Positions 7,396-48,133 of a DNA stretch of 64,000 nucleotides are shown piece after piece (position 1 is the stretch's first letter; every line of letters starts with the position of its first letter). Both the position numbers and the translations under genes were made by a program. The stretch is from an uncultured Methanospirillum sp. Lineage in GTDB: Archaea; Halobacteriota; Methanomicrobia; Methanomicrobiales; Methanospirillaceae. Location: assembly GCA_964501565.1 (NCBI GenBank), contig CAZCUJ010000003.1:41100-105099 (forward strand), read 5' to 3'. The notes beneath the pieces are model-generated. The model was not told the DNA's origin and ran no database searches. It saw only the letters and a list, made by a program, of their open reading frames with translations.

Positions 7396-7468
7396 CTTCT
7401 CCTGGTACCTTTCACGAGGGTGAGGATAAGCCTTCTTTTTTAACGGCAGACCGGGGGAATTGCTGGTT

Positions 7469-7490
7469 CCGTTTCACACCGCAATCGGTC
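7469..7490. repeat. inverted partial copy of the DR core, lying inside an 8-bp inverted repeat
   Basis: The reverse complement GACCGATTGCGGTGTGAAACGG matches GATC(A/G)CGGTGTGAAAGTG of the direct repeats (15 of 18). It is flanked by GCAGACCG (7446-7453) and CGGTCTGC (7486-7493). Confidence 0.35.
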
Positions 7491-7537
7491 TGCTCTTAAA
7501 GGCAGAGCCATTATTCCGGTGCATGGAGAGCTTTTAA

Positions 7538-8422
7538 ATCGCCGATCTCCGCTCCATCTATCCCAGGTCCAGTGCCCGGAATGTTTACGCCTCCGCCATG
7601 CGCGCGTTCCTCGACTCGGTCTGCGGGTCGCATCGCCAGTACACCGAGCGCCTCTCCCCCACCCCGGAGAATCAGGCTCGAGACGAAGACCTCGCTACCG
7701 GATAGCTCCCCAGTAGCAGGGACCACGCGGCCGATGTGATCTGCGCAATCGGCGGTTGGACCGTGGCGCCCAAGACCGTGCACCTCCGGGTTGCCGCAGC
7801 GCTGGTGTCCCTGCCACACCACGGGATCGACCCCCTCTCTAACCAGGACCGCCGGCGCATCCGATCGAAGCTGCCTCGCGGCGGGGCCGTGACCCGGCGT
7901 GGCGAACCGACACCGGAGAAGCGGTGGACCGTCGCCGACCACCCCAACGAGCGAGCCAAGGTGCTCGTCCTGATCCTCGCTTCGCCGGGGATACGGATCG
8001 GGGAGGCCGTGAAGGTCCGGGTCAGCGACCTCGACCCCGGCGCGTCACCGGCAGTGAGCGAGATCCGGGCCGTGAATGAGAGTATCGACCTTCGCCGATC
8101 CCGGCCCCCCGATACGTTCCAGGCCATCCGGGAACCGCCCAACCACTGGCTCGCTGCGGCCCTCTGGCGCCTCGACAGGCACGGCGCCGGTTTATTTGCC
8201 CGGCACGCGGCGATCTGGATCACGGCCAGTGACACGCGCTGGGTGAGCTCTGGATCCCTCCTCTCCGGAGAGACACTAGAGCCGCACGCCAGCGAGGACG
8301 ATGCAGCCCGGGTCATGGTGGCGCTCGATCTGGACGGCGTGGACATCACGTCGAGGCCGATACGGGCAGATGCGCGCGGAATCCTGGCCGGGGGGGTATC
8401 CAGACCAGTAGGCCTGGCTTGA
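7538..8422 (+). pseudogene. tyrosine recombinase / phage-type integrase, decayed
   Basis: A single frame reads an N-terminal core-binding-like segment 'SARNVYASAMRAFLDSV'. It then hits an in-frame TAG (7703-7705). After that comes the catalytic-domain box I 'LILASPGIRIGEAVKVRVSDLD' and 'ARHAA'. No ATG/GTG opens the frame after the TAA at 7535-7537, and there is no Tyr nucleophile anywhere in the C-terminal region. Confidence 0.55.
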
Positions 8423-8615
8423 GGCCAGGCGGTGACCCGGCCCCGTCCTTCACGACTTCGATCGAACCCCATCCCCGGGTCCACCATCATTCGTAGCCCG
8501 TGACGATTGCCATCTGGGTGCCAGGGCAGTTTGGAACACTTCCGTCATTCTGACTTTCATGAACAATCACCGATGCGGTGCCGCCGTCGGGGCAGTGGCG
8601 GCGGCCCATCGGGTT

Positions 8616-8661
8616 CTCGACGTCAAGGCATATGAGGCGTGAAGATCACGGTGTGAAAGTG
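8616..8661. repeat. direct repeat DR1 (core 46 bp)
   Basis: CTCGACGTCAAGGCATATGAGGCGTGAAGATCACGGTGTGAAAGTG matches 13430-13475 at 41 of 46 positions. Similarity extends upstream (GGCGGCGG at 8597) and downstream (a second GATCACGG). Confidence 0.75.
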
Positions 8662-8728
8662 CTGGTTTCATGGATCACGGGCATACTATTCAGAGAGGCG
8701 ACTGGCGTTGATAGTGGAGCTGGAGGAG

Positions 8729-8863
8729 ATGAGGATGCAGGCAACAAAGATAAGTTCGGCGATGGTGCACGCGGCCAGGGATCTCGAGAGTGGGCCGGAG
8801 AAGGCCCGGGCCCTGGTCGCCCGGTCGATGAAGCAGCCCGGATGGGGGGACTGGCGCCCATGA
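8729..8863 (+). CDS. hypothetical mini-protein (44 aa)
   Basis: The ATG is preceded by GGAGCTGGAGGAG. The ORF 'MRMQATKISSAMVHAARDLESGPEKARALVARSMKQPGWGDWRP' ends in an ATGA overlap with the next ORF. It is too short for the supplied ORF track. Confidence 0.3.
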   Translation: MRMQATKISSAMVHAARDLESGPEKARALVARSMKQPGWGDWRP

Positions 8864-9066
8864 CGTACACCCTCGTATCCCCGGCGGCCCTGGAGAAGGC
8901 GATCGATCGCATGGCGGAGGAGCTCGGGGTCTCCCGCGGTGCGCTCCTCGAGGCGCTCACGCCGGTGGTAATCGGGTGGGCCATTGCCCGGATCTCAGAA
9001 GACCTCGGGGTCACGCCGCGAGAGGCCCGGACCAGGATCGCCCGAGCGATAGATCGGACGGCATGA
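8860..9066 (+). CDS. small ribbon-helix-helix (CopG/Arc-like) DNA-binding protein
   Basis: 68 aa. 'YTLVSPAALEKAIDRMAEELGVSRGALLEAL' fits the beta-strand/helix/helix RHH pattern. There are ATGA overlaps on both sides. Confidence 0.45.
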   Translation: MTYTLVSPAALEKAIDRMAEELGVSRGALLEALTPVVIGWAIARISEDLGVTPREARTRIARAIDRTA

Positions 9067-9248
9067 CCGTGCTCAGCCGACCGAATTACCTGCCATTTTC
9101 TTCCGTTCTCGAGGGTCCGCTCGACCAGATCGAAGGCCAAATCGATACTATTACTGGAAAATATCCGGGTTCCACTCCTGTTCTGGCACTCGCCCGCTGT
9201 AACGACCAACACGATTTTACTTCACCACCGACGATCAGGATCGTATGA
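9063..9248 (+). CDS. hypothetical protein (61 aa)
   Basis: The ATG overlaps the preceding stop (ATGA). Composition is markedly AT-richer than the surrounding genome. No recognisable motif. Confidence 0.35.
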   Translation: MTVLSRPNYLPFSSVLEGPLDQIEGQIDTITGKYPGSTPVLALARCNDQHDFTSPPTIRIV

Positions 9249-9285
9249 TCGCCGTTACGATCGCCCGGTCCCCGGAGAGGCGCTG

Positions 9286-9492
9286 ATGCCGCGGCAATGG
9301 GACGGGAAGAGTCCCCGGATCTGTCCCCTCTGTGGCCGAACATTCACGGACGGCGGGTTCGTAATCCCGACCGACCCGGAGTACGGCGATTCCTTCACCT
9401 ATTGCCGGACGTGCCACGATGCCGACGAGGCCGCATGCCGTGCCGATGCCGCCTGCCGGGGCGATACCAACCGGCGCAGGATGGGGGGATGA
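9286..9492 (+). CDS. zinc-ribbon protein (68 aa)
   Basis: 'CPLCGRTF...YCRTCH' is a C4 zinc-ribbon arrangement. The ATG is preceded by GGAGAGG. Confidence 0.5.
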   Translation: MPRQWDGKSPRICPLCGRTFTDGGFVIPTDPEYGDSFTYCRTCHDADEAACRADAACRGDTNRRRMGG

Positions 9493-9632
9493 CACCGCCC
9501 CGAACGCCCGACCGCCGTCCTGTCCGTGCGCCGCGCGGAGCAGGAGTTGAGGCCGTGCCGGGTCCGATGCGGGGGGCTTTGAGCGCCGATGACAGGGCAG
9601 GGCTGATCGACCTGCTCCGCCGGAGCGAGTGA
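9489..9632 (+). CDS. hypothetical mini-protein (47 aa)
   Basis: ATGA overlap with the zinc-ribbon ORF stop. The R/P-rich composition makes it doubtful. Confidence 0.2.
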   Translation: MTPPRTPDRRPVRAPRGAGVEAVPGPMRGALSADDRAGLIDLLRRSE

Positions 9633-9965
9633 TCGGGGCAGGTCTCGAGGATCGTCCCTCGAACCAGCATCATCACGGCGGGCGGTACGCGATGCCCGGG
9701 GAGGACGCGCGATGAACCCCGACCTGGGGCGGGGAGCTCCCGCCGATAAAAACAGAGATCGACAGCGCGGTATTCTGCCGGTTCCGGCTCGACATCGAGT
9801 GGCGCCGATGCACCGGGTCCTCAGTCCGGCGGCAGAGTGCACCATGCAGACGGAACGAACTCGATACCACTGTGCCGCCGCCAAACACTTGATGCATCTC
9901 GGCGACCGGGAGAACGCGAATCGAGTTTTGATTGAGGCCACTCCGCAGCGCAGTCGAGGAGCATA

Positions 9966-10331
9966 ATGGGCATCTGGATCGGCGACCTGCTCAGGTGTTA
10001 CGACGGAACCTCCTACGAGGTCGGCGCCTTTCTCGATTGCGGCGAGTCTCGCGAAGGGGGCGGAACCCTGTACACCGTCTGTCTTCTGCCGATGCTCGGC
10101 GACCCCACCAATCCCGAGGACTGGATCACCGTCCCGCTGATCGTGGCCGGCGATGTGGTCCTCTGTCCGTACCACTGGCGGAGCAATCCGAACGCGTACC
10201 GGCTCGACATTTCCGAATATCGATGGGTGGAGATGGCGACCCGGACGGCGTGCGTGATGATCGACGGATGGCCGTATCTGCCGCCCGGGCCAGGCGGTCC
10301 GGACGAGCGGCCGGGCTCTGTGAACGACTGA
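9966..10331 (+). CDS. hypothetical protein (121 aa)
   Basis: Unbiased, protein-like composition ('GIWIGDLLRCYDGTSYEVGAFLDCGE...'). The start overlaps an upstream short ORF stop (TAATG). No family recognised. Confidence 0.5.
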   Translation: MGIWIGDLLRCYDGTSYEVGAFLDCGESREGGGTLYTVCLLPMLGDPTNPEDWITVPLIVAGDVVLCPYHWRSNPNAYRLDISEYRWVEMATRTACVMIDGWPYLPPGPGGPDERPGSVND

Positions 10332-10341
10332 CGGAAGGACG

Positions 10342-10629
10342 GTGCTGTCCTGCCCACGAACACGAACGACGACGGGCTGGGTCGAGCGCAAGAGATGTTC
10401 ATTGCGGATCGACGGTGGACGAGGCGATACTCTCATCATCTCCAGCGGCACCTGTCGCCCCATACGTCCCTGTCATTGTAAGGATTGCAGGGGGGTCTCG
10501 ATCTCCTTGGCGCCACTCGCCGCCCTGGCGGGGACGGGTAGCTTCCCCACCGGGACAGACGATTCTACCATGCCGATCTGGCCCGGGTTCTTCGCGTGGT
10601 CGGATCGACCTGTGGGGCGGACCGCATGA
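10342..10629 (+). CDS. hypothetical protein (95 aa), doubtful
   Basis: GTG start preceded by GGAAGGA. The stop overlaps the next start (ATGA at 10626). The Cys/Arg/Thr-rich composition is ambiguous. Confidence 0.3.
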   Translation: MLSCPRTRTTTGWVERKRCSLRIDGGRGDTLIISSGTCRPIRPCHCKDCRGVSISLAPLAALAGTGSFPTGTDDSTMPIWPGFFAWSDRPVGRTA

Positions 10630-10952
10630 CCGCCGACCAGGGCGGCGAGGAGATCGACGAGCGGATCCGCGCGATCATGGTCGAGGGGGTCGCGGACCGG
10701 TTTTTCATGCTGTCTGGCCGCGCAGAGTGCATTCGCAACGGCTCCTCGCGAACCATCTCGTGCACCAGGGACCTCGAGATGTTCACCGCAGTGCTCGATG
10801 CACTCGCGGCTGATCTCGGTCAGCCCCACGCAGATCCCGTGCGCCGCATGACCGAGGATCTCGAGGCGCGGGCCGCCCTGGATCGATCGGCGCTCGTCCA
10901 CCTCTACCAGATGGAAGAGGCAGACCGGCCCGGCGGAAGACCAGAGCCATGA
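10626..10952 (+). CDS. hypothetical protein (108 aa)
   Basis: 'MTADQGGEEIDERIRAIMVEGVADRFFMLSGRAECIRNG...' has a helical, protein-like composition. It is the last member of the plus-strand mini-ORF chain and is convergent with the PolB gene. Confidence 0.45.
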   Translation: MTADQGGEEIDERIRAIMVEGVADRFFMLSGRAECIRNGSSRTISCTRDLEMFTAVLDALAADLGQPHADPVRRMTEDLEARAALDRSALVHLYQMEEADRPGGRPEP

Positions 10953-11007
10953 ATCGGCCGGCGCGACCAGAACCATCAGCCACCCGGGCCCGAGGTTCGC
11001 CCCAGGA

Positions 11008-12984
11008 CTACGCCAGCGGTGCATACTCCCTCCTCTCCGCCGGTACACCGAGCCCCACGGCAATCTCGGCCCACGCCTTCGCGAGCACGCGGCGGTAGTA
11101 CTGCCGATCGGCGTGGTCCGCGTTCCAGGCGCAGTCCGCGAGACCGGCCCGGGCATCCCGGACGACGTACCGGATCGTCATCCCCGGCGCCACGGGCACG
11201 CCGGCCCGCCGGTACGATGCCACCGCGCCCCGTTCCGGGCATTTCCTTGTATAGTCCACCGTCGAGATCCGCCGGCTGATCACCAGGTCCTCGACCGGTG
11301 CCGTCGCGAGGCTGTCGCAGTACCGCCGGTAGACACCTTCGACCTCGGGAGCGATCGCCCGCAGCTCCGCGGTCGACCGCGCCGTGCCCATCAGGGCGAG
11401 CGCCTCCTGCTGGAACTGCTGCACGTACGCCGGGCAGTCTCCGCGCCGGGCCATGATCCCCCGGACCTTCACCTCGCCGTCGTCGAGCCGGCCGTAGTAC
11501 CACGTGTACGCCCCCGTCCCGTCCTTCTGCGGCAGGAAGACCACCCAGTCGAAGGTCTCGACCTCCATCAGGTACCCGCTCTCCGCCTCGATCGCGGCCC
11601 TGAGCCGGTCCACGGGCTCACCCTGGACGAAGAGGCAGTCCGTGATACCGTGCAGCACCTCGAAGCCCATCGCCTCCGCCAGGTCCTTCGACGCGATCAA
11701 CACCTCGCGCGAGATCCGCGTGATCGTTTCGTGGACGTCCACGCGCCCGAACTTCGCGTTCTTGTACCCGGTATAGCCGAAGCAGGTCACGAGCATCCAC
11801 TTGAGCACCGAGTCCATGCCGGCTACCGCCGGGTCCGCCCTCTTCGCGGCCTTCGTCCTGATCCGCATCTCCAGCAGGGGCCGGAGGCATTCGGCGAGGA
11901 ACCCCGACCGTTCAGGGTGCTCGACCGTCTCGGGCGAGAGATTGTGCCTGACGATGATCGACGGGTAGAGCGAGGTGAAGTCGACCTGGTAGACCTGTTC
12001 GTAGACCCCCGGCGCCGGCTGGAACATCATCCCGCCGCGATCTGCTGCCCGGAGCGCCGTGATGGTCTTCGCCCGCTCGGCGTCGGCCTTCTGCCAGGGC
12101 ACGGCGATCCCCCGGGAGAGCGCCGCGTACACTTCGAAGGACGAGATCAACGTGCCCGGGGTGACCCGCGCCGCCCGGTTCGGCGAGAGCCCGGTGATCC
12201 GTGCCGCGACGAGCACGCCGGGGAGGCCTCCCTCGCGGTAGGTGAACGACTGTTCCGTGTCGATCAGCACGCGCCCGGCCGGGATCATCGCCTTGGGCTT
12301 GTGATACATCCGGCCGTACGAGAAGTACGACCGCGAACCGAGCGTGACGTACCGCCCGGTCCGCGAGAATGCCGTCTCGAGCCCGTAGCAGGTCGCCGCC
12401 TCGACGAGCCGCTCGGTCCACGTGTCCGCGTTCGGGAAGAGGACGACGTCGGGGTCGACCGTCTCGACGAGGCCGAGGAGGTCCCCGAGCACGGTCCGCT
12501 CGTCGCCCTCGAACCGGCGAGTCCGGTCGCCGTCGGTCATGGTGCCTCCCTCGATCCGGTCTGATCGGACGGGATCGCCGTCGAGCGCAAGCTCGGTCAC
12601 GACGAGGTCCTGCGCAAGGGTCATCGAGAACCGCTCTTCGCCCGGCCCCGTGCAGGGAAGGAGGCCGCGCTCGGCGAGGTAGCGCTGGTCGCGGCGGACG
12701 TCGACGTTGTAGCAGACCGCCCCGTAGTCGGTCTGCCGCAGGACCGCCGCGGCCACGTCCTTGCCGGCGTCGATACGCCAGCCCGGCCGTTCGTCGTGGA
12801 TGGTCCGGACCGTGACCGGCTCGAGGCCGACCTCGCTCTCGAGCGCGTCGAGGAGTGGCCAGTGGCGGACGGGGTCGTCGAGAGTAAGGAGGAACGACGG
12901 CGGGCAGGGGACGCGCTCGACCGCGCCGCCCGGGCCCCAGAGCGCGACCGTGCCCCGCTCGACCGTGGTGTCGAGGACCCACAC
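11008..12984 (-). CDS. family-B DNA polymerase, short PolB2-like form with degenerate exonuclease and motif-C residues
   Basis: 658 aa with a GTG start. Motif A 'VDFTSLYPSII' is intact. Motif B is 'KWMLVTCFGYTGY'. Motif C is 'HGITDC' where 'YGDTDS' is expected. 'VKVRGIMARRGD' is KxY-like. The ExoI and ExoII positions read 'LALDGD' and 'FPNADTWTERL'. Confidence 0.85.
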   Translation of the reverse strand: MWVLDTTVERGTVALWGPGGAVERVPCPPSFLLTLDDPVRHWPLLDALESEVGLEPVTVRTIHDERPGWRIDAGKDVAAAVLRQTDYGAVCYNVDVRRDQRYLAERGLLPCTGPGEERFSMTLAQDLVVTELALDGDPVRSDRIEGGTMTDGDRTRRFEGDERTVLGDLLGLVETVDPDVVLFPNADTWTERLVEAATCYGLETAFSRTGRYVTLGSRSYFSYGRMYHKPKAMIPAGRVLIDTEQSFTYREGGLPGVLVAARITGLSPNRAARVTPGTLISSFEVYAALSRGIAVPWQKADAERAKTITALRAADRGGMMFQPAPGVYEQVYQVDFTSLYPSIIVRHNLSPETVEHPERSGFLAECLRPLLEMRIRTKAAKRADPAVAGMDSVLKWMLVTCFGYTGYKNAKFGRVDVHETITRISREVLIASKDLAEAMGFEVLHGITDCLFVQGEPVDRLRAAIEAESGYLMEVETFDWVVFLPQKDGTGAYTWYYGRLDDGEVKVRGIMARRGDCPAYVQQFQQEALALMGTARSTAELRAIAPEVEGVYRRYCDSLATAPVEDLVISRRISTVDYTRKCPERGAVASYRRAGVPVAPGMTIRYVVRDARAGLADCAWNADHADRQYYRRVLAKAWAEIAVGLGVPAERREYAPLA

Positions 12985-13065
12985 GGTCAGCGCCCTCCGT
13001 CTGCTGCGCGCGGTTCCCGCCGGTCTCCCGGCGCCGTCCTCCCGGTTCCGCGCGTCGTCCCGGGG

Positions 13066-13287
13066 TCAGGCGGGAGCCGCATGGCTCGCGGTCACGCCCT
13101 CGAGCTCGATCAGCACCGCGAGGACCGCGGCCTCGAGCGGATCGTCGAGCCCGCCGAAGGTCGCCGGCCCGTGCTTCTCGAGCGCGGCGATGACCCCATC
13201 CATCGCCGGCTGGTCGCCGGCCTTCAGCGCCCGGCGGAACCGCCGCCAGCGCTCGAGGACGAGCGGGAGCTCGCTGCGGCAGCTCAT
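13066..13287 (-). CDS. hypothetical protein (73 aa) upstream of the PolB-like gene
   Basis: ATG at 13287. 'MSCRSELPLVLERWRRFRRALKAGDQPAMDGVIAALEKHG...' is helical and on the same strand as PolB, 81 bp upstream of it. Confidence 0.4.
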   Translation of the reverse strand: MSCRSELPLVLERWRRFRRALKAGDQPAMDGVIAALEKHGPATFGGLDDPLEAAVLAVLIELEGVTASHAAPA

Positions 13288-13429
13288 GCCGCGCCTCCCG
13301 CCGTCGCCATGGGTCCCGTCCGACCGCCACGCTGGTATCGGGGAGGGGTGGAGGGACCGCATCCGTTGCTGTCGTGCATGGTGAGAACCACTACGTCGCC
13401 GCCATTGTCAAGGCGGCGGACGTCAGATC

Positions 13430-13475
13430 CTCGACGTCAAGATATATGAGGAGTGACGATCGCGGTGTGAAAGTG
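13430..13475. repeat. direct repeat DR2 (core 46 bp)
   Basis: CTCGACGTCAAGATATATGAGGAGTGACGATCGCGGTGTGAAAGTG is the partner of 8616-8661. Confidence 0.75.
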
Positions 13476-13692
13476 AGCGAGCCCTGATCGCGGAGGACGG
13501 AATAGGACGAGAAGATTGTTGGAGAGCCAGGCACCGTCGGTGACGATGACTCTGCCGTTACCGTAAACGTCGTTGGATAATCCGTCGCTACCGGTATCCG
13601 TCGGAGTGCCGATACCGTGGGCCGGGCTCCGGCCCGGGCGAAGCCTGCGGGGGCAGGCCCCTATTGCAGGTCTCCGCCCGGGCGTATGCTCC
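13437..13692 (-). pseudogene. 3'-terminal gene fragment without a start codon, ending inside DR2
   Basis: The open minus-strand frame '...TDTGSDGLSNDVYGNGRVIVTDGAWLSNNLLVLFRPPRSGLAHFHTAIVTPHIS*' lies directly downstream of the peptidase stop. No ATG/GTG/TTG is available. It uses rare codons (tta, aga). Confidence 0.3.
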
Positions 13693-16071
13693 TTACGCGA
13701 TCCAGGGGACGTCGAAGGTGTAATCCGGAGGCGCCTCGCCCTGGAGGTGGAGGACGAAGTAGTCGAACTGCCGGCGGATGAAGTAGGGATCGTAGTTGAA
13801 GTGGTGGTTCCTGTTCGGCAGGACCAGCATGTCAAAGGTCCTGTTCGCTTCGACCAGGGCGTTCGCGAGCTGGAGGCTCATCGACGGATGGACGTTATCG
13901 TCGAGGTCGCCTGTCACCAGGAGCAGGTTGCCCGTCAGGTTGGCCGCCTTCAGGGCAGTTACCTGCTCCAGGTAGTTTTCGCCGTCGGGCATTCCCTCGT
14001 ACTTCTCGCCCCAGTACGAGCCGTAGAGGCGGTTGTCCTGGTTCCCGGCCGAGGCCACGCCGACGGAATAGAACGTCGGGTAGGTGAGCAGCGCCTGCGC
14101 TGACATAAAACCGCCGCCCGAGTGACCGTAGATCCCGACGCGGTCGAGGTCCATGTACGATCGGTTCCTGCCGAGGGCCTGAATCCCCGAGATATGGTCC
14201 GCGAGCCCGCCCGCGTCACCCATGGATCCGTACGCGGCGTCATGGAAGGCCTTGGAGCGATAGGGCGTGCCCGGACCGTCGAGATTCACCACGACGAAGC
14301 CGAGCTCGGCAAGGGCCTGGGCCTTCCAGAAGATCTTCGCGTTCCAGCTGTAGTCTCCGGGGAACGCCTTCTCCGTCACGATCGACTGCGGCCCGGGATA
14401 GACCGAGTCGACGACCGGGTACATCGCCTGCGGATCGAACGTCGTCGGGAGGAAGAGGAGGCCGTAGAGGTCGGTCACGCCGTCCGCGGCCTTTACCCTG
14501 ACCCGCTCCGGCTGTCGCCAGCCGAGCGAGGTCAGATACGAGGTGTCCGCCTCCTGGACCTCGAGGAGGAAGGCACCGTCGGTCGCGCGGACGATCGTCC
14601 GGGGCGGTTCGTCGACCCGTGAGTAGGTATCCACGAAGACGCTCCCGTCGGGAGAGAGAGAGATCGCGTGATCGGCGTCCTCTGGGGTGAGGAGCGTCAT
14701 ATTCGTGCCGTCCGGGTGAACGCGGTAGAGGTGGCGGTAGTACGGATCGCGGTCTGGTTCGCGGCCTCCCGCCGTGAAATAGACCCAGCCGTCGCTAACG
14801 TCGAGGAGGGTCCGGACGACCCAGTCCCCTGCAGTGACGGCGTTCATCAGCCGTCCGTCCGCGCCGTAGCGATAGAGATGTCCCCACCCGCTCCGCTCGG
14901 AGAACCAGAGGAACTCGCCGTTCGTCTCGTTCACCCAGACGTTCGGCGCGCCGCCGTAGTCCAGGTTCGACTCGAGGTACGTGCTCCCGGTCTCGTTCAG
15001 TGCCTCGCGCACGGCGCCCGTGACGGGGTCCTCCTCGAGGAAGCGGAGCGTCCGTTCCCCCCGCTCTACGAACAGGGAGTGGACCCGCGACCCGTCCGCG
15101 CTCCACCACGCGAGAACGAACGCGCCTCCGTCCATGGACGAGGTGTGGGGCCAGGGGGCGTGGTTGACCCGGACGACCGACCCGTTCGCGACGTCGACGA
15201 CCACGGGCTCGTACTGCGCCACCTCCTCGCCGGGGTACGAGTAGCGGTAGGAGTAGGGAATGGGCCTGAGCGTGCCGTTCTCGGGGGAGTACTGCAGGAG
15301 GCCGAGCGCTGTCACGTTCCGCTGGTCGACCTGGAACGTCCTAACCCTGCGGGAGTCGGGGGACCAGGCGGCGAACGGCGTCGCCGTCGTGTTCTCCCGC
15401 GCGGCCGTCACGGGCTCGCTCGATACGTCCGCGATCCTGGCGTACGGGTGGTCGACCGTTCCGTCACCGGTCAGGCGGCGCACAGTGCCGGTCTGCAGAT
15501 CTCGGAGGGCGATGTTCTCTCCGTCGAGGAAGAGGGCGAGGAGGCCGTCGGGCGAGACGAGATCGCCGTCGGCGGGCGCGACGCCCGGGCTCCGGTCGTG
15601 GAGCACGGCCCCGTCCCATTCCCAGCTCCGGTTGAACGCCGCGAACCGGGCAGCCCCGTTCCCACGCACGACGACGGCCGCGAGGGGGAGCCCGGAGACG
15701 TTGACCGCCTCGCCGTTCGCGTCGGAGAGCGCTGTCGCAAGCGCGGCGTGGTCGAAGGCCGGCCGCTGCGTCCGGTTCAGGGGATCGACCAGGATGTACG
15801 ACGTCCCGCCCCGGCCGGTCCGTTCGTACCAGAACGCGGGGCTGTCCCCGATCCAGTGCGGCTCGGCCGACAGGTTGTACAGCTCGTGGACCACGCTCTG
15901 CGGGAGGAACTGCTCGGCCCTCGCATAATCCCCAGCGTCGGCAGCCGTCCTGCTTGCGCTGCTGGAAGAGCTGGTGAGCGAGAGGAACGGGTTCAGGTTC
16001 GTCCCAGCGCCTGCCGTGGAGAAGGTGAAGAGCAGGACCAGGGCGACCGCGAGGAGGGTATAGATCCGCAT
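13693..16071 (-). CDS. secreted S9-family serine peptidase (dipeptidyl-peptidase IV / prolyl oligopeptidase type)
   Basis: 792 aa. It has an N-terminal signal peptide 'MRIYTLLAVALVLLFTFSTAGAG', a beta-propeller-like N-half, and a C-terminal alpha/beta hydrolase with the nucleophile motif 'IYGHSGGGFMS' and 'GDLDDNVH'. Confidence 0.85.
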   Translation of the reverse strand: MRIYTLLAVALVLLFTFSTAGAGTNLNPFLSLTSSSSSASRTAADAGDYARAEQFLPQSVVHELYNLSAEPHWIGDSPAFWYERTGRGGTSYILVDPLNRTQRPAFDHAALATALSDANGEAVNVSGLPLAAVVVRGNGAARFAAFNRSWEWDGAVLHDRSPGVAPADGDLVSPDGLLALFLDGENIALRDLQTGTVRRLTGDGTVDHPYARIADVSSEPVTAARENTTATPFAAWSPDSRRVRTFQVDQRNVTALGLLQYSPENGTLRPIPYSYRYSYPGEEVAQYEPVVVDVANGSVVRVNHAPWPHTSSMDGGAFVLAWWSADGSRVHSLFVERGERTLRFLEEDPVTGAVREALNETGSTYLESNLDYGGAPNVWVNETNGEFLWFSERSGWGHLYRYGADGRLMNAVTAGDWVVRTLLDVSDGWVYFTAGGREPDRDPYYRHLYRVHPDGTNMTLLTPEDADHAISLSPDGSVFVDTYSRVDEPPRTIVRATDGAFLLEVQEADTSYLTSLGWRQPERVRVKAADGVTDLYGLLFLPTTFDPQAMYPVVDSVYPGPQSIVTEKAFPGDYSWNAKIFWKAQALAELGFVVVNLDGPGTPYRSKAFHDAAYGSMGDAGGLADHISGIQALGRNRSYMDLDRVGIYGHSGGGFMSAQALLTYPTFYSVGVASAGNQDNRLYGSYWGEKYEGMPDGENYLEQVTALKAANLTGNLLLVTGDLDDNVHPSMSLQLANALVEANRTFDMLVLPNRNHHFNYDPYFIRRQFDYFVLHLQGEAPPDYTFDVPWIA

Positions 16072-16107
16072 ACGAGTTGGTCGCGGCCTCGGAAGATAAG
16101 CGATCGG

Positions 16108-16355
16108 TCATGGTCCCGGATCGGCCCCCCCATCTGCCGGGTGACACCGGGTTACCGAGGAACGGGAGTTCCCCTGCCGGCCGGCGTCGACGAGCACCGC
16201 GTGGCCGTCAGGGCATGGATGATCGCCGCATCGGCCTCGCCCACATCGAGGAACGAGACAGTCAGGGTGTCGGGGACGGAGGTCATCGATGGGCCGATGA
16301 CGAGAGGAAAACTGAGACAGAGAAGCGGAAGAAGACGGCGCGTGGGGATACTCAC
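16108..16355 (-). pseudogene. N-terminal remnant of a secreted metallo-beta-lactamase-fold protein (frameshifted, truncated)
   Basis: From GTG 16355 the frame reads a signal-like 'SIPTRRLLPLLCLSFPLVIG' and then 'LTVSFLDVGEADAAIIH'. The expected continuation 'PDGHAVLVDAGRQGNS' is in another frame (shift near 16205-16214). The frame stops at 16108, before any HxHxDH motif. Confidence 0.4.
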
Positions 16356-16871
16356 TGGATTGGTGATTGTCGGACCGGGGATCAGGGAAGGCACACCGGG
16401 AGCGAGTACCCCCTCGGCCAACAGGTGACGGAAGGAATCGAGCTCGCCTCCGGCGTCAGCCCAGAGGCAAGCAGGCCTGCCTTTTCCCTCCACCGGCATT
16501 GGATCGGGCGGGCTCCGCTCGCTCGTGAGCCCGCCCAAACCCACCGCCCCGCGCGAGGGCGGTGCACCCCGACCAGGTCCACCGGATGATCGGTCATAAC
16601 CGCGATCCGGTTGCCGGCCATCCGGTAGCCTTGAGCCCGGTACCGCTCCAGATCGGCGATATGCCCCGACGTGTCCACGGCGATCCGGCACGGCTCGTGA
16701 TCCGCGATCAGCCGGGTGAATGTCGGCCCGTCGCCGACCATGACCCCGGCGGCGGGGCAGAGGTAGTAATTCCCGGTAGCCGTGAAGCCGGCAGTCAGGT
16801 CGAATGTCCCCGGGGTCACCGTGCGCGTCACGAGGCGGGCGGGAGGCGGACACCGCGTCGCCCAACCCTCC

Positions 16872-43569: not shown

Positions 43570-48133
<4,564 letters not shown>

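Follow-up and report, generated by a model that had tools for sequence, protein, structure and literature searches.

A PolB2-PPB2 operon within a lineage-specific insertion of a Methanospirillum genome, behind a promoter box common to radA and rpa

How does a methanogen come to hold its only intact copy of a specialized DNA polymerase within the debris of mobile elements, and what might such a polymerase do for the cell? The question is raised by a 64,000-nt stretch of the genome of an uncultured Methanospirillum sp. (GenBank assembly GCA_964501565.1, contig CAZCUJ010000003.1, positions 41,100 to 105,099; hereafter, the window), in which positions 11008-12984 encode a short family-B DNA polymerase with several degenerate catalytic motifs. 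The initial annotation placed this protein in the archaeal PolB2 group and put forward two explanations for its surroundings, namely, that this copy is borne by a mobile element or that it is part of a damage-response module. The analysis described here led us to conclude that the protein is probably the catalytic subunit of a mutasome that it forms with the small protein PPB2, that the two most likely belong to a damage/repair regulon, and that this gene is probably a relocated copy of one PolB2 lineage of the genus (lineage A), the other (lineage B) having been deleted from this genome. The system itself is known, and the context and regulation of this operon are what make it of interest: the only intact PolB2 copy lies within mobile-element debris, behind a promoter box common to radA and rpa. 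The operon consists of the following elements:

11008..12984, minus strand: PolB2 gene (658 aa, GTG start), an exonuclease-dead family-B polymerase with D335 and D449 kept and the first Asp of motif C replaced by Ile
13066..13287, minus strand: PPB2, an arCOG07300-type partner (73 aa), with GGGAGG 8 nt before the ATG
13288..13475, minus strand: promoter and ~150-nt leader of the PPB2-PolB2 operon, with the box CACTTTCACACCGCGATC running from 13475 to 13458 and the TATA element at ~13449-13442

That the 658-aa open reading frame (ORF) encodes a family-B polymerase, as initially proposed, was borne out by both profile and structure comparisons. The protein matches Pfam PF00136 (DNA_pol_B) at 1e-17 and, over its full length, the NCBIfam equivalog NF004416 ('type B DNA-directed DNA polymerase') with 883 bits, the cut-off being 516, and its top match in a phmmer search of the PDB is 5mdn (1.5e-26). 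The AlphaFold2 (AF2) model, for which 29 homologues served as input (pLDDT 86, pTM 0.82), displays the N-terminal, exonuclease-like, palm, fingers, and thumb domains of the family-B fold, with all domains superposed on the Thermococcus 9N and KOD PolB structures in Foldseek comparisons (TM 0.72-0.76). The frame is intact, the GC content of third codon positions (GC3) is 0.92, similar to that of the host, and the N-terminus, MWVLD, corresponds to the MWILD with which the homologues start in the family alignment. Homologues of 640-720 aa number more than 1500, and all named ones originate from Methanomicrobiales (Methanosphaerula, Methanoregula, and Methanomicrobiaceae), and the family is represented in 32 of the 41 relatives and missing from the other 9. 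The PolB2 group has been described as having a disrupted YGDTD motif with a conserved distal Asp and a missing Exo I (Rogozin et al. 2008, PMC2527604), was subsequently linked to arCOG07300 and an inactivated RadA (Makarova et al. 2014, PMC4104785), and its partners have been named PPB2 and iRadA (Timinskas et al. 2025, PMC11791011). Judged by its motif pattern and the NF004416 match, the product of 11008-12984 is an ordinary member of this known archaeal PolB2 (Dpo2) group, in agreement with the original assignment. A replicative, viral, casposon, or protein-primed PolB was ruled out, given that PolB2 lacks intact Exo I-III and YxDTDS. With PolB2 and PPB2 described between 2008 and 2025 and methanogen copies common, the polymerase alone adds little.

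The catalytic motifs were located through the alignment of the 29 homologues, PDB alignments, and a profile alignment to the PolB3 of the same genome (contig C16), to which PolB2 is only ~27% identical, with the similarity confined to the palm, fingers, and thumb. This reference keeps DIE, FD, YxxxD, DxxSLYP, KxxxNSxYG, YGDTDS, and KKRY. The placement of motif A (DFTSLYPSII, with an invariant D335) and of motif B (KWMLVTCFGYTGY, in the fuller stretch LKWMLVTCFGYTGY) in the initial annotation was correct; in motif B, the Lys is invariant, with Asn replaced by Thr, Ser by Cys, and Tyr by Phe. Motif C, VLHGITDC, had likewise been located correctly; it aligns to VLYGDTDS and reads HGI[TV]DC across the PolB2 family, with the Tyr replaced by His and the first Asp by Ile; its description as degenerate holds for this first Asp but not for the distal D449, which is invariant in the 29 homologues, the combination characteristic of the PolB2 group. 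The segment 'VKVRGIMARRGD', which had been taken for a KxY-like motif, was misidentified: the KxY position aligns to GAYTWYYGRL, in which the lysines are gone and Tyr496 is invariant, and 'VKVRG' forms the following strand. As for the exonuclease, the Exo I region of the 29 homologues contains no invariant acidic residue, in keeping with the noted lack of D-x-E, even though exact placement of Exo I is not possible; in Exo II (NADTW), the catalytic Asp aligns to Thr190, which agrees with the noted lack of F-D; and in Exo III, the Tyr is an Arg and an Asp, D242, seems to be kept. Proper alignment hence upholds the loss of the Exo I and Exo II residues, but not of every catalytic position said to be altered, with D449 retained. 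Altogether, D335, K395, D449, and Y496 are invariant across the 29 PolB2 sequences, down to 52% identity, and both aspartates predicted to bind metal (D335 of motif A and D449 of motif C) are retained. Because the degenerate motifs are themselves nearly invariant over this range of divergence, PolB2 appears to be under strong purifying selection rather than decaying.

The 73-aa ORF at 13066-13287, which had been suggested to be a partner of the polymerase, turned out to be the known PPB2, conserved beside PolB2 in many genera. It is co-oriented with PolB2 and ends 81 nt before it, and no fewer than 10 loci from other genera have a homologue adjoining PolB2 on the upstream side. PPB2 has been described as a three-helix protein (PMC11791011), and the AF2 model of the window protein (pLDDT 92) consists of helices 3-20, 23-46, and 50-69, so that an adjacent, co-oriented gene for a three-helix PPB2 of ~70-90 aa, one of the marks of a mutasome locus, is present. 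The protein is 59-63% identical to the product of the first PPB2 gene (PPB2a) of the Methanosphaerula palustris operon. The latter operon encodes a polymerase that is 62% identical to the window PolB2 and belongs to the same NCBIfam equivalog, NF004416, and has the same ACTTTCAC box upstream, but comprises four genes, PPB2a-iRadA-PPB2b-PolB2, with a 177-aa iRadA, whereas the window operon keeps only the PPB2a-type gene and PolB2. More generally, the layout in other genera is (PPB2a)-iRadA-PPB2-PolB2, with an iRadA-sized ORF in 11 of 12 loci. The second mark of a mutasome, the ATPase-dead RadA paralogue iRadA, is lacking from the operon in this genome, where iRadA is represented only by a 52-aa N-terminal remnant (C1:128438-128593). 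Within the genus, the operon is fluid: it is PPB2-PolB2 in this genome (G000), G005, and GCA_0329..., and iRadA-PolB2 in G006, an iRadA remnant is held by G007, and in G001 and G008 there is neither a match to PPB2 nor room for it between the leader and PolB2.

Three further copies of the promoter-leader-PPB2 unit were observed in this genome (C24:7973-8380, C56:6838-7203, and C60:5649-6005), one with an in-frame stop followed by a cysteine synthase gene and two that end at contig ends. The iRadA proteins of M. palustris (L030:11261-11794) and G006 (L027:3082-3615) both end in AQRTLA(x2)GW, a PIP-box-like tail. Should this tail serve the complex for clamp binding, the motif would be lacking in genomes that have no iRadA, such as this one; no PIP-like motif is evident at the C-terminus of the window PolB2.

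To which genes is the operon tied by its promoter? The box CACTTTCACACCGCGATC is an 18-mer in the genus; across the order it has the core ACTTTC[A/G]C, and TATA follows after 7-13 nt (7-10 nt in this genome). With at most one mismatch, the 18-mer occurs 13 times in 2.3 Mb, compared to ~0.004 occurrences expected, and in combination with TATA it is found at ~16-20 loci of the genome, among them window positions 13458-13475, 8644-8661, and 7469-7486 as well as C22:19346, C11:6952, C7:76218, C40:1329, and C19:5591. The genes behind the box include radA, the gene for a 409-aa RPA, PPB2-PolB2, a pair encoding an RNase_H_2 exonuclease and a DEAD helicase with the MrfA zinc-binding domain (MZB), that is, an MrfB/MrfA-like pair, and integrases and regulators of integrated elements. 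Among genomes drawn from six families of the order, the core box with TATA precedes radA in 30 of 30; it also precedes rpa in 16 of 27 genomes and is present exactly once upstream of the PolB2 operon in all 12 loci of other genera, the background being 0.014 core boxes per 350 nt. The 8-mer alone shows no genome-wide enrichment (51 observed vs 62 expected), and only the arrangement of box and TATA is specific.

Because PPB2-PolB2 shares its box with radA, rpa, and the MrfB/MrfA-like pair, the operon most likely belongs to a DNA-damage/repair regulon, and its transcription would be expected to be damage-inducible; of the two explanations offered at the outset, the damage-response module is accordingly the better supported. 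In Sulfolobus, the induction of dpo2 and other damage genes depends on ANTTTC, and the element 5'-ANTTTC-3' is bound by Orc1-2 (PMC6061795). The ACTTTC core fits ANTTTC, and, similar to the Sulfolobales damage-response element, it is a promoter feature of recombination/repair genes as well as of the PolB2 operon and precedes TATA. The methanogen box, a candidate regulatory site, differs in being longer (ACTTTC[A/G]C order-wide and an 18-mer in the genus) and in preceding radA and rpa. In the literature consulted, we found no description of an ACTTTC(A/G)C box in methanogens.

The box also opens a ~190-nt promoter-leader unit that is present at at least nine loci of this genome. Besides the operon promoter, the window contains:

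8500..8661, minus strand: second promoter-leader copy, in the same orientation, with no intact gene behind it
7469..7503, plus strand: variant box CCGTTTCACACCGCAATC with TATA-like CTCTTAAAGG, facing the dead integrase gene

The direct repeats initially reported to flank the polymerase are real, with 53 nt at 8609-8661 and 13423-13475 being 85% identical, but they are portions of these promoter-leader copies, both of which point leftward, and not att sites. In the leader, which has no match in Rfam, a hairpin (CCGCCGCC/GGCGGCGG) is accompanied by a 42-nt block that is nearly invariant, CCCCTCCACCCCTCCCCGGTACCAGCGTGGCGGTCGGACGGG. The 42-nt block might act as an anti-Shine-Dalgarno, and the CCUCC stretches could pair with the Shine-Dalgarno GGAGG. 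When the leader was considered as a coding upstream ORF, both frames were open, and the frame in which substitutions are synonymous varied from site to site. Copies of the leader (window 13290-13440, minus strand) were also observed on contigs C60, C24, C56, C19, C37 (two), C1 (two), and C2 and in the loci of relatives, and the genes behind them encode PPB2, an iRadA remnant, an RHH protein, and an HTH_58 protein.

How the operon came to its present location is a separate question. It lies within an insertion with the following boundaries and further contents:

7441..16871: the whole insertion, 9.43 kb, exactly between the promoter of an ACT-domain gene and the cobQ stop codon
7523..8422, plus strand: tyrosine-recombinase pseudogene with in-frame TAA at 7535 and TAG at 7703; weak XerA match
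8729..10952, plus strand: chain of eight small orphan ORFs, one RHH/HTH-like and one with a zinc ribbon
13693..16071, minus strand: S9/DPP-IV-type peptidase gene, present in 3 of 13 genomes of the genus
16174..16340, minus strand: frameshifted N-terminal remnant of a secreted metallo-beta-lactamase (MBL)-fold gene
16506..16822, minus strand: N- and C-terminal remnants of a 438-aa element gene, of which an intact copy is found on contig C37 and in L084/L085

Seven relatives, among them M. palustris from another genus, have just 10-250 bp between the ACT-domain gene and cobQ, and the spacer (window 7396-7441 / 16871) is a recurrent insertion spot in the genus: two further members hold other inserts (1.3 kb in G005, locus L044; 1.7 kb in G013, locus L052), and G001, G008, and G011 contain unrelated ~250-bp fillers. 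Compared with nine relatives, in which the two genes are adjacent or differently separated, the island recognized in the initial annotation is a true insertion. No target-site duplication or att repeat was detected at its ends (7441/16871), and no tRNA genes that could serve as integration targets are present within positions 1-30000.

The integrase had been called dead, and indeed, in addition to the two in-frame stop codons, it resembles the intact 326-aa integrase of the same genome (48% identity) only over 7523-8068, the similarity stopping at 8068. The eight mini-ORFs have no counterpart elsewhere in this genome or in any of the relatives' loci that were examined. Searches of the mini-ORFs and element genes against PHROGs and Pfam yielded only DNA methyltransferase, weak beta-helix, and RHH/HTH-like matches. 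The S9 peptidase gene is variable, being frameshifted in G005 and G012, and a search for a C-terminal stump of the MBL-fold gene beside it gave no confirmation. The DNA of the insertion is 68% GC, and tblastx comparison with L084/L085 yielded composition noise only; it was replaced by tblastn searches with defined proteins.

An element also seen in L084/L085 lies on contig C37 (20.6 kb). This integrated virus- or plasmid-like element encodes a 411-aa integrase, a chain of ORFs of 44-170 aa, a DNA methyltransferase, the 438-aa weak beta-helix protein, and an HTH_58 regulator located behind the same promoter-leader as PPB2-PolB2. Decayed relatives of the element were observed on C19, C4, C29, C46, C57, and C61. 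Because its genes are 91-97% identical to their L085 counterparts, with housekeeping genes of those species being ~85% identical, the element has spread recently.

The history of the polymerase itself is recorded in its phylogeny, in which the copies from the genus form two lineages (support for the A/B split, 0.96):

lineage A: G000 (this genome), G001, G008, G004, G002, GCA_0329..., two G005 copies, and the G012 pseudogene
lineage B: G006, G011, G013, G003, G007, and G012

The species tree, built from eight markers, groups G001/G008 with G006/G011, and G004 with G013/G007, and the branching within each PolB2 lineage matches it. In G006, G007, and G011, the PolB2 locus is syntenic with contig C2 of the window genome, where a deletion scar (C2:44956-45307) consists of the promoter/leader (44956-45168), 36 nt, and then the last ~100 nt of PolB2 (45204-45307). 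The best reading of these relationships is an old PolB2 duplication with differential loss, after which lineage B would have stayed at one locus and lineage A, residing in mobile-element-rich DNA, would have moved several times. In line with relocation, the window order of 438-aa gene, MBL gene, PPB2, and PolB2 is collinear with that of the closest relatives. By its position in the tree, the only intact PolB2 of this genome is the lineage A copy inside the insertion. Extra PolB2 copies, stopped or fragmentary, were observed beside an intact copy in G005 (C38), G012 (C12), G006 (C11), G004 (C4), and G010; these fit a picture of reciprocal loss between two paralogous lineages, although strain mixing in metagenome-assembled genomes is possible. 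Recent horizontal transfer of PolB2 was rejected on the basis of the trees and the divergence.

The strongest competitor of this history is the possibility that an integrative virus- or plasmid-like element carries PPB2-PolB2 as cargo, which would then serve that element or its host as a mobile mutagenesis or damage-tolerance module like rumAB and mucAB. The operon does sit in a lineage-specific insertion together with an integrase pseudogene, orphan mini-ORFs, and element-gene remnants, and in the closest relatives (GCA_032941855.1 and GCA_032942435.1) it lies shortly after an integrase, a small-ORF chain, and the 438-aa gene, with an intact 471-aa MBL-fold gene preceding PPB2-PolB2 and a type I restriction-modification/abortive-infection island following. 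Moreover, PolB2 occupies at least five different loci within the genus, without synteny, and leaves the degraded extra copies listed above; integrases of this genome have the same promoter box; and promoter-leader repeats stand on both sides of the cassette, here and in L085. Against this, PolB2 is 73-86% identical to its relatives, equal to the divergence of housekeeping neighbors (85.5% vs ~85%), whereas the C37 element genes show the 91-97% identity to L085 noted above; both PolB2 lineages follow the species tree, and GC3 is host-like, so that neither phylogeny nor divergence is decoupled from the host. Nor does PolB2 lie between att sites served by a functional integrase: the recombinase gene here is dead and differs in type from the integrase of the C37/L085 element, and the nearly intact C37 copy of this element has no PolB2. 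Finally, the PolB2 locus is stably syntenic in another genus (G029, G034, and G039; g17). On balance, we consider carriage as cargo unlikely, and carriage by an active element is not supported; what survives of the proposal that the gene is element-borne is that it lies, without synteny in the genus, amid remnants of an integrase and of elements in an insertion specific to this lineage. The bacterial Pol V homologues rumAB and mucAB, present on integrative and conjugative elements and plasmids, are Y-family polymerases, demonstrable element cargo, and under LexA control. The window operon resembles them in joining an error-prone polymerase, inducible by damage (as predicted here for the window), to a small accessory protein in a mobile context, and differs in that the polymerase belongs to family B and its phylogeny favors old vertical paralogues.

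Is the relocated PolB2 an active enzyme? The alternative, originally predicted for the group (Rogozin et al. 2008, PMC2527604; Makarova et al. 2014, PMC4104785) and echoed in the initial annotation, is a catalytically dead structural paralogue, for example, a scaffold in replication or origin regulation. The motifs give it some ground, with motif C devoid of its Tyr and first Asp, motif B of the Asn, Ser, and Tyr, the KxY lysines lost, and the exonuclease dead. However, the family keeps both metal-ligand aspartates and the motif B lysine without exception, and co-regulation with radA and rpa points to repair. Furthermore, the Sulfolobus islandicus PolB2, with Ile-Ile-Asp (IID) at the DxD position, is still required for targeted mutagenesis (PMC11791011), and Dpo2 is damage-inducible and extends from mismatches and lesions (PMC7390963, PMC8764526). 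Given that Dpo2 with the same substitutions and an Ile-x-Asp motif C polymerizes and is needed for damage-induced mutagenesis (PMC8764526, PMC7390963, PMC11791011), the label 'predicted inactive' is outdated, and a dead paralogue is very improbable; PolB2 is more readily viewed as a catalytically active polymerase with a putative translesion or extender role. The window PolB2 shares with the S. islandicus Dpo2 mutasome the family-B fold with a dead, shrunken exonuclease domain, the replacement of the first Asp of DxD by Ile with the distal Asp retained, a small three-helix PPB2 gene immediately upstream, and a promoter element with ANTTTC. It differs in that the operon has no iRadA, with none intact in the genome, in the host, a mesophilic methanogen that uses PolD and has no Y-family polymerase, and in its location within a mobile-element-rich insertion.

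The complement of polymerases in the genome fits such a role. Separate replicative polymerases, which the initial annotation suggested looking for, are present: a canonical PolB3 with all motifs (C16) and the PolD subunit DP2 (C7:71971). No Y-family polymerase (IMS, PF00817) was detected in the 96.6%-complete assembly, with control genomes yielding matches, and because of this absence PolB2 is the sole candidate for a specialized lesion polymerase. That PolB2 is a decaying leftover headed for loss and no longer important to the cell, as might be suggested by neighboring genes that are pseudogenes or remnants, the lost iRadA, the pseudogenized copies in sister genomes, and the absence of the family from 9 of 41 relatives, is hardly credible for a sole PolB2, in a genome without a Y-family polymerase, that has 658 open codons, every family-invariant residue, a GC3 of 0.92, and an intact promoter box, TATA, Shine-Dalgarno, and PPB2.

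The PPB2-PolB2 mutasome that we favor would operate as follows. Replication-blocking damage would cause a factor acting at the box to raise transcription of radA, rpa, the MrfAB-like pair, and PPB2-PolB2, the latter two genes being co-transcribed. Held by a PPB2 trimer, PolB2 would extend primers across or past lesions without proofreading, with catalysis proceeding through D335 and D449, and in this lineage the two proteins would work without iRadA. The lineage A copy would have moved, along with neighboring element-derived genes, into the ACT-CobQ spacer, and the lineage B copy at the stable locus of the genus was deleted, leaving the scar on C2; one possible route of relocation is recombination between promoter-leader repeats.

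Several points weigh against this scenario. iRadA, the defining partner of the modelled heteropentamer, is missing, so the complex may work differently or poorly, and, as the assembly is 96.6% complete and PPB2 paralogues lie at the ends of contigs C56 and C60, a further iRadA is possible. The motif B changes (Asn to Thr, Ser to Cys, and Tyr to Phe) could lower PolB2 activity, as could the lost KxY lysines and the Tyr-to-His change in motif C. The likeness of the box to the Sulfolobus element is limited to the 6-nt core, and the regulator that acts on it could be unrelated to DNA damage. An Orc1/Cdc6 neighborhood is known for many euryarchaeal PolB2 loci; in the loci examined here, the divergent Orc1/Cdc6 paralogue (C3:14915-16141) never adjoins PolB2, and its upstream region showed no box.

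A more far-reaching version of the mutasome scenario can be offered tentatively, as a possibility that we would not yet favor: Methanomicrobiales would possess an ACTTTC(A/G)C damage regulon related to the Orc1-2 system, from which integrated elements have copied the box, and the polymerase would be a two-protein, iRadA-independent enzyme encoded by a repeat-bracketed, relocating cassette. If so, the regulon would consist of radA, rpa, the MrfB/MrfA-like pair, and the PolB2 operon, under a factor that is perhaps an Orc1/Cdc6 paralogue; the copied box would let integrated elements couple the expression of their integrases and regulators to DNA damage in the host; and the cassette, bracketed by ~190-bp promoter-leader repeats, would relocate through recombination between them and encode, in PolB2-PPB2, the only specialized polymerase of the cell.

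The genus presents a translesion-polymerase module that behaves as a semi-mobile cassette, with reciprocal loss, a deletion scar, relocation into an insertion hot spot, and repeated loss of iRadA. This variation provides natural 'knock-outs' for asking which partners PolB2 needs. The box shared across six families offers a testable handle on whether methanogens or other Euryarchaeota possess a transcriptional DNA-damage response and on whether such a response would be related to the Orc1-2 system of Sulfolobales.

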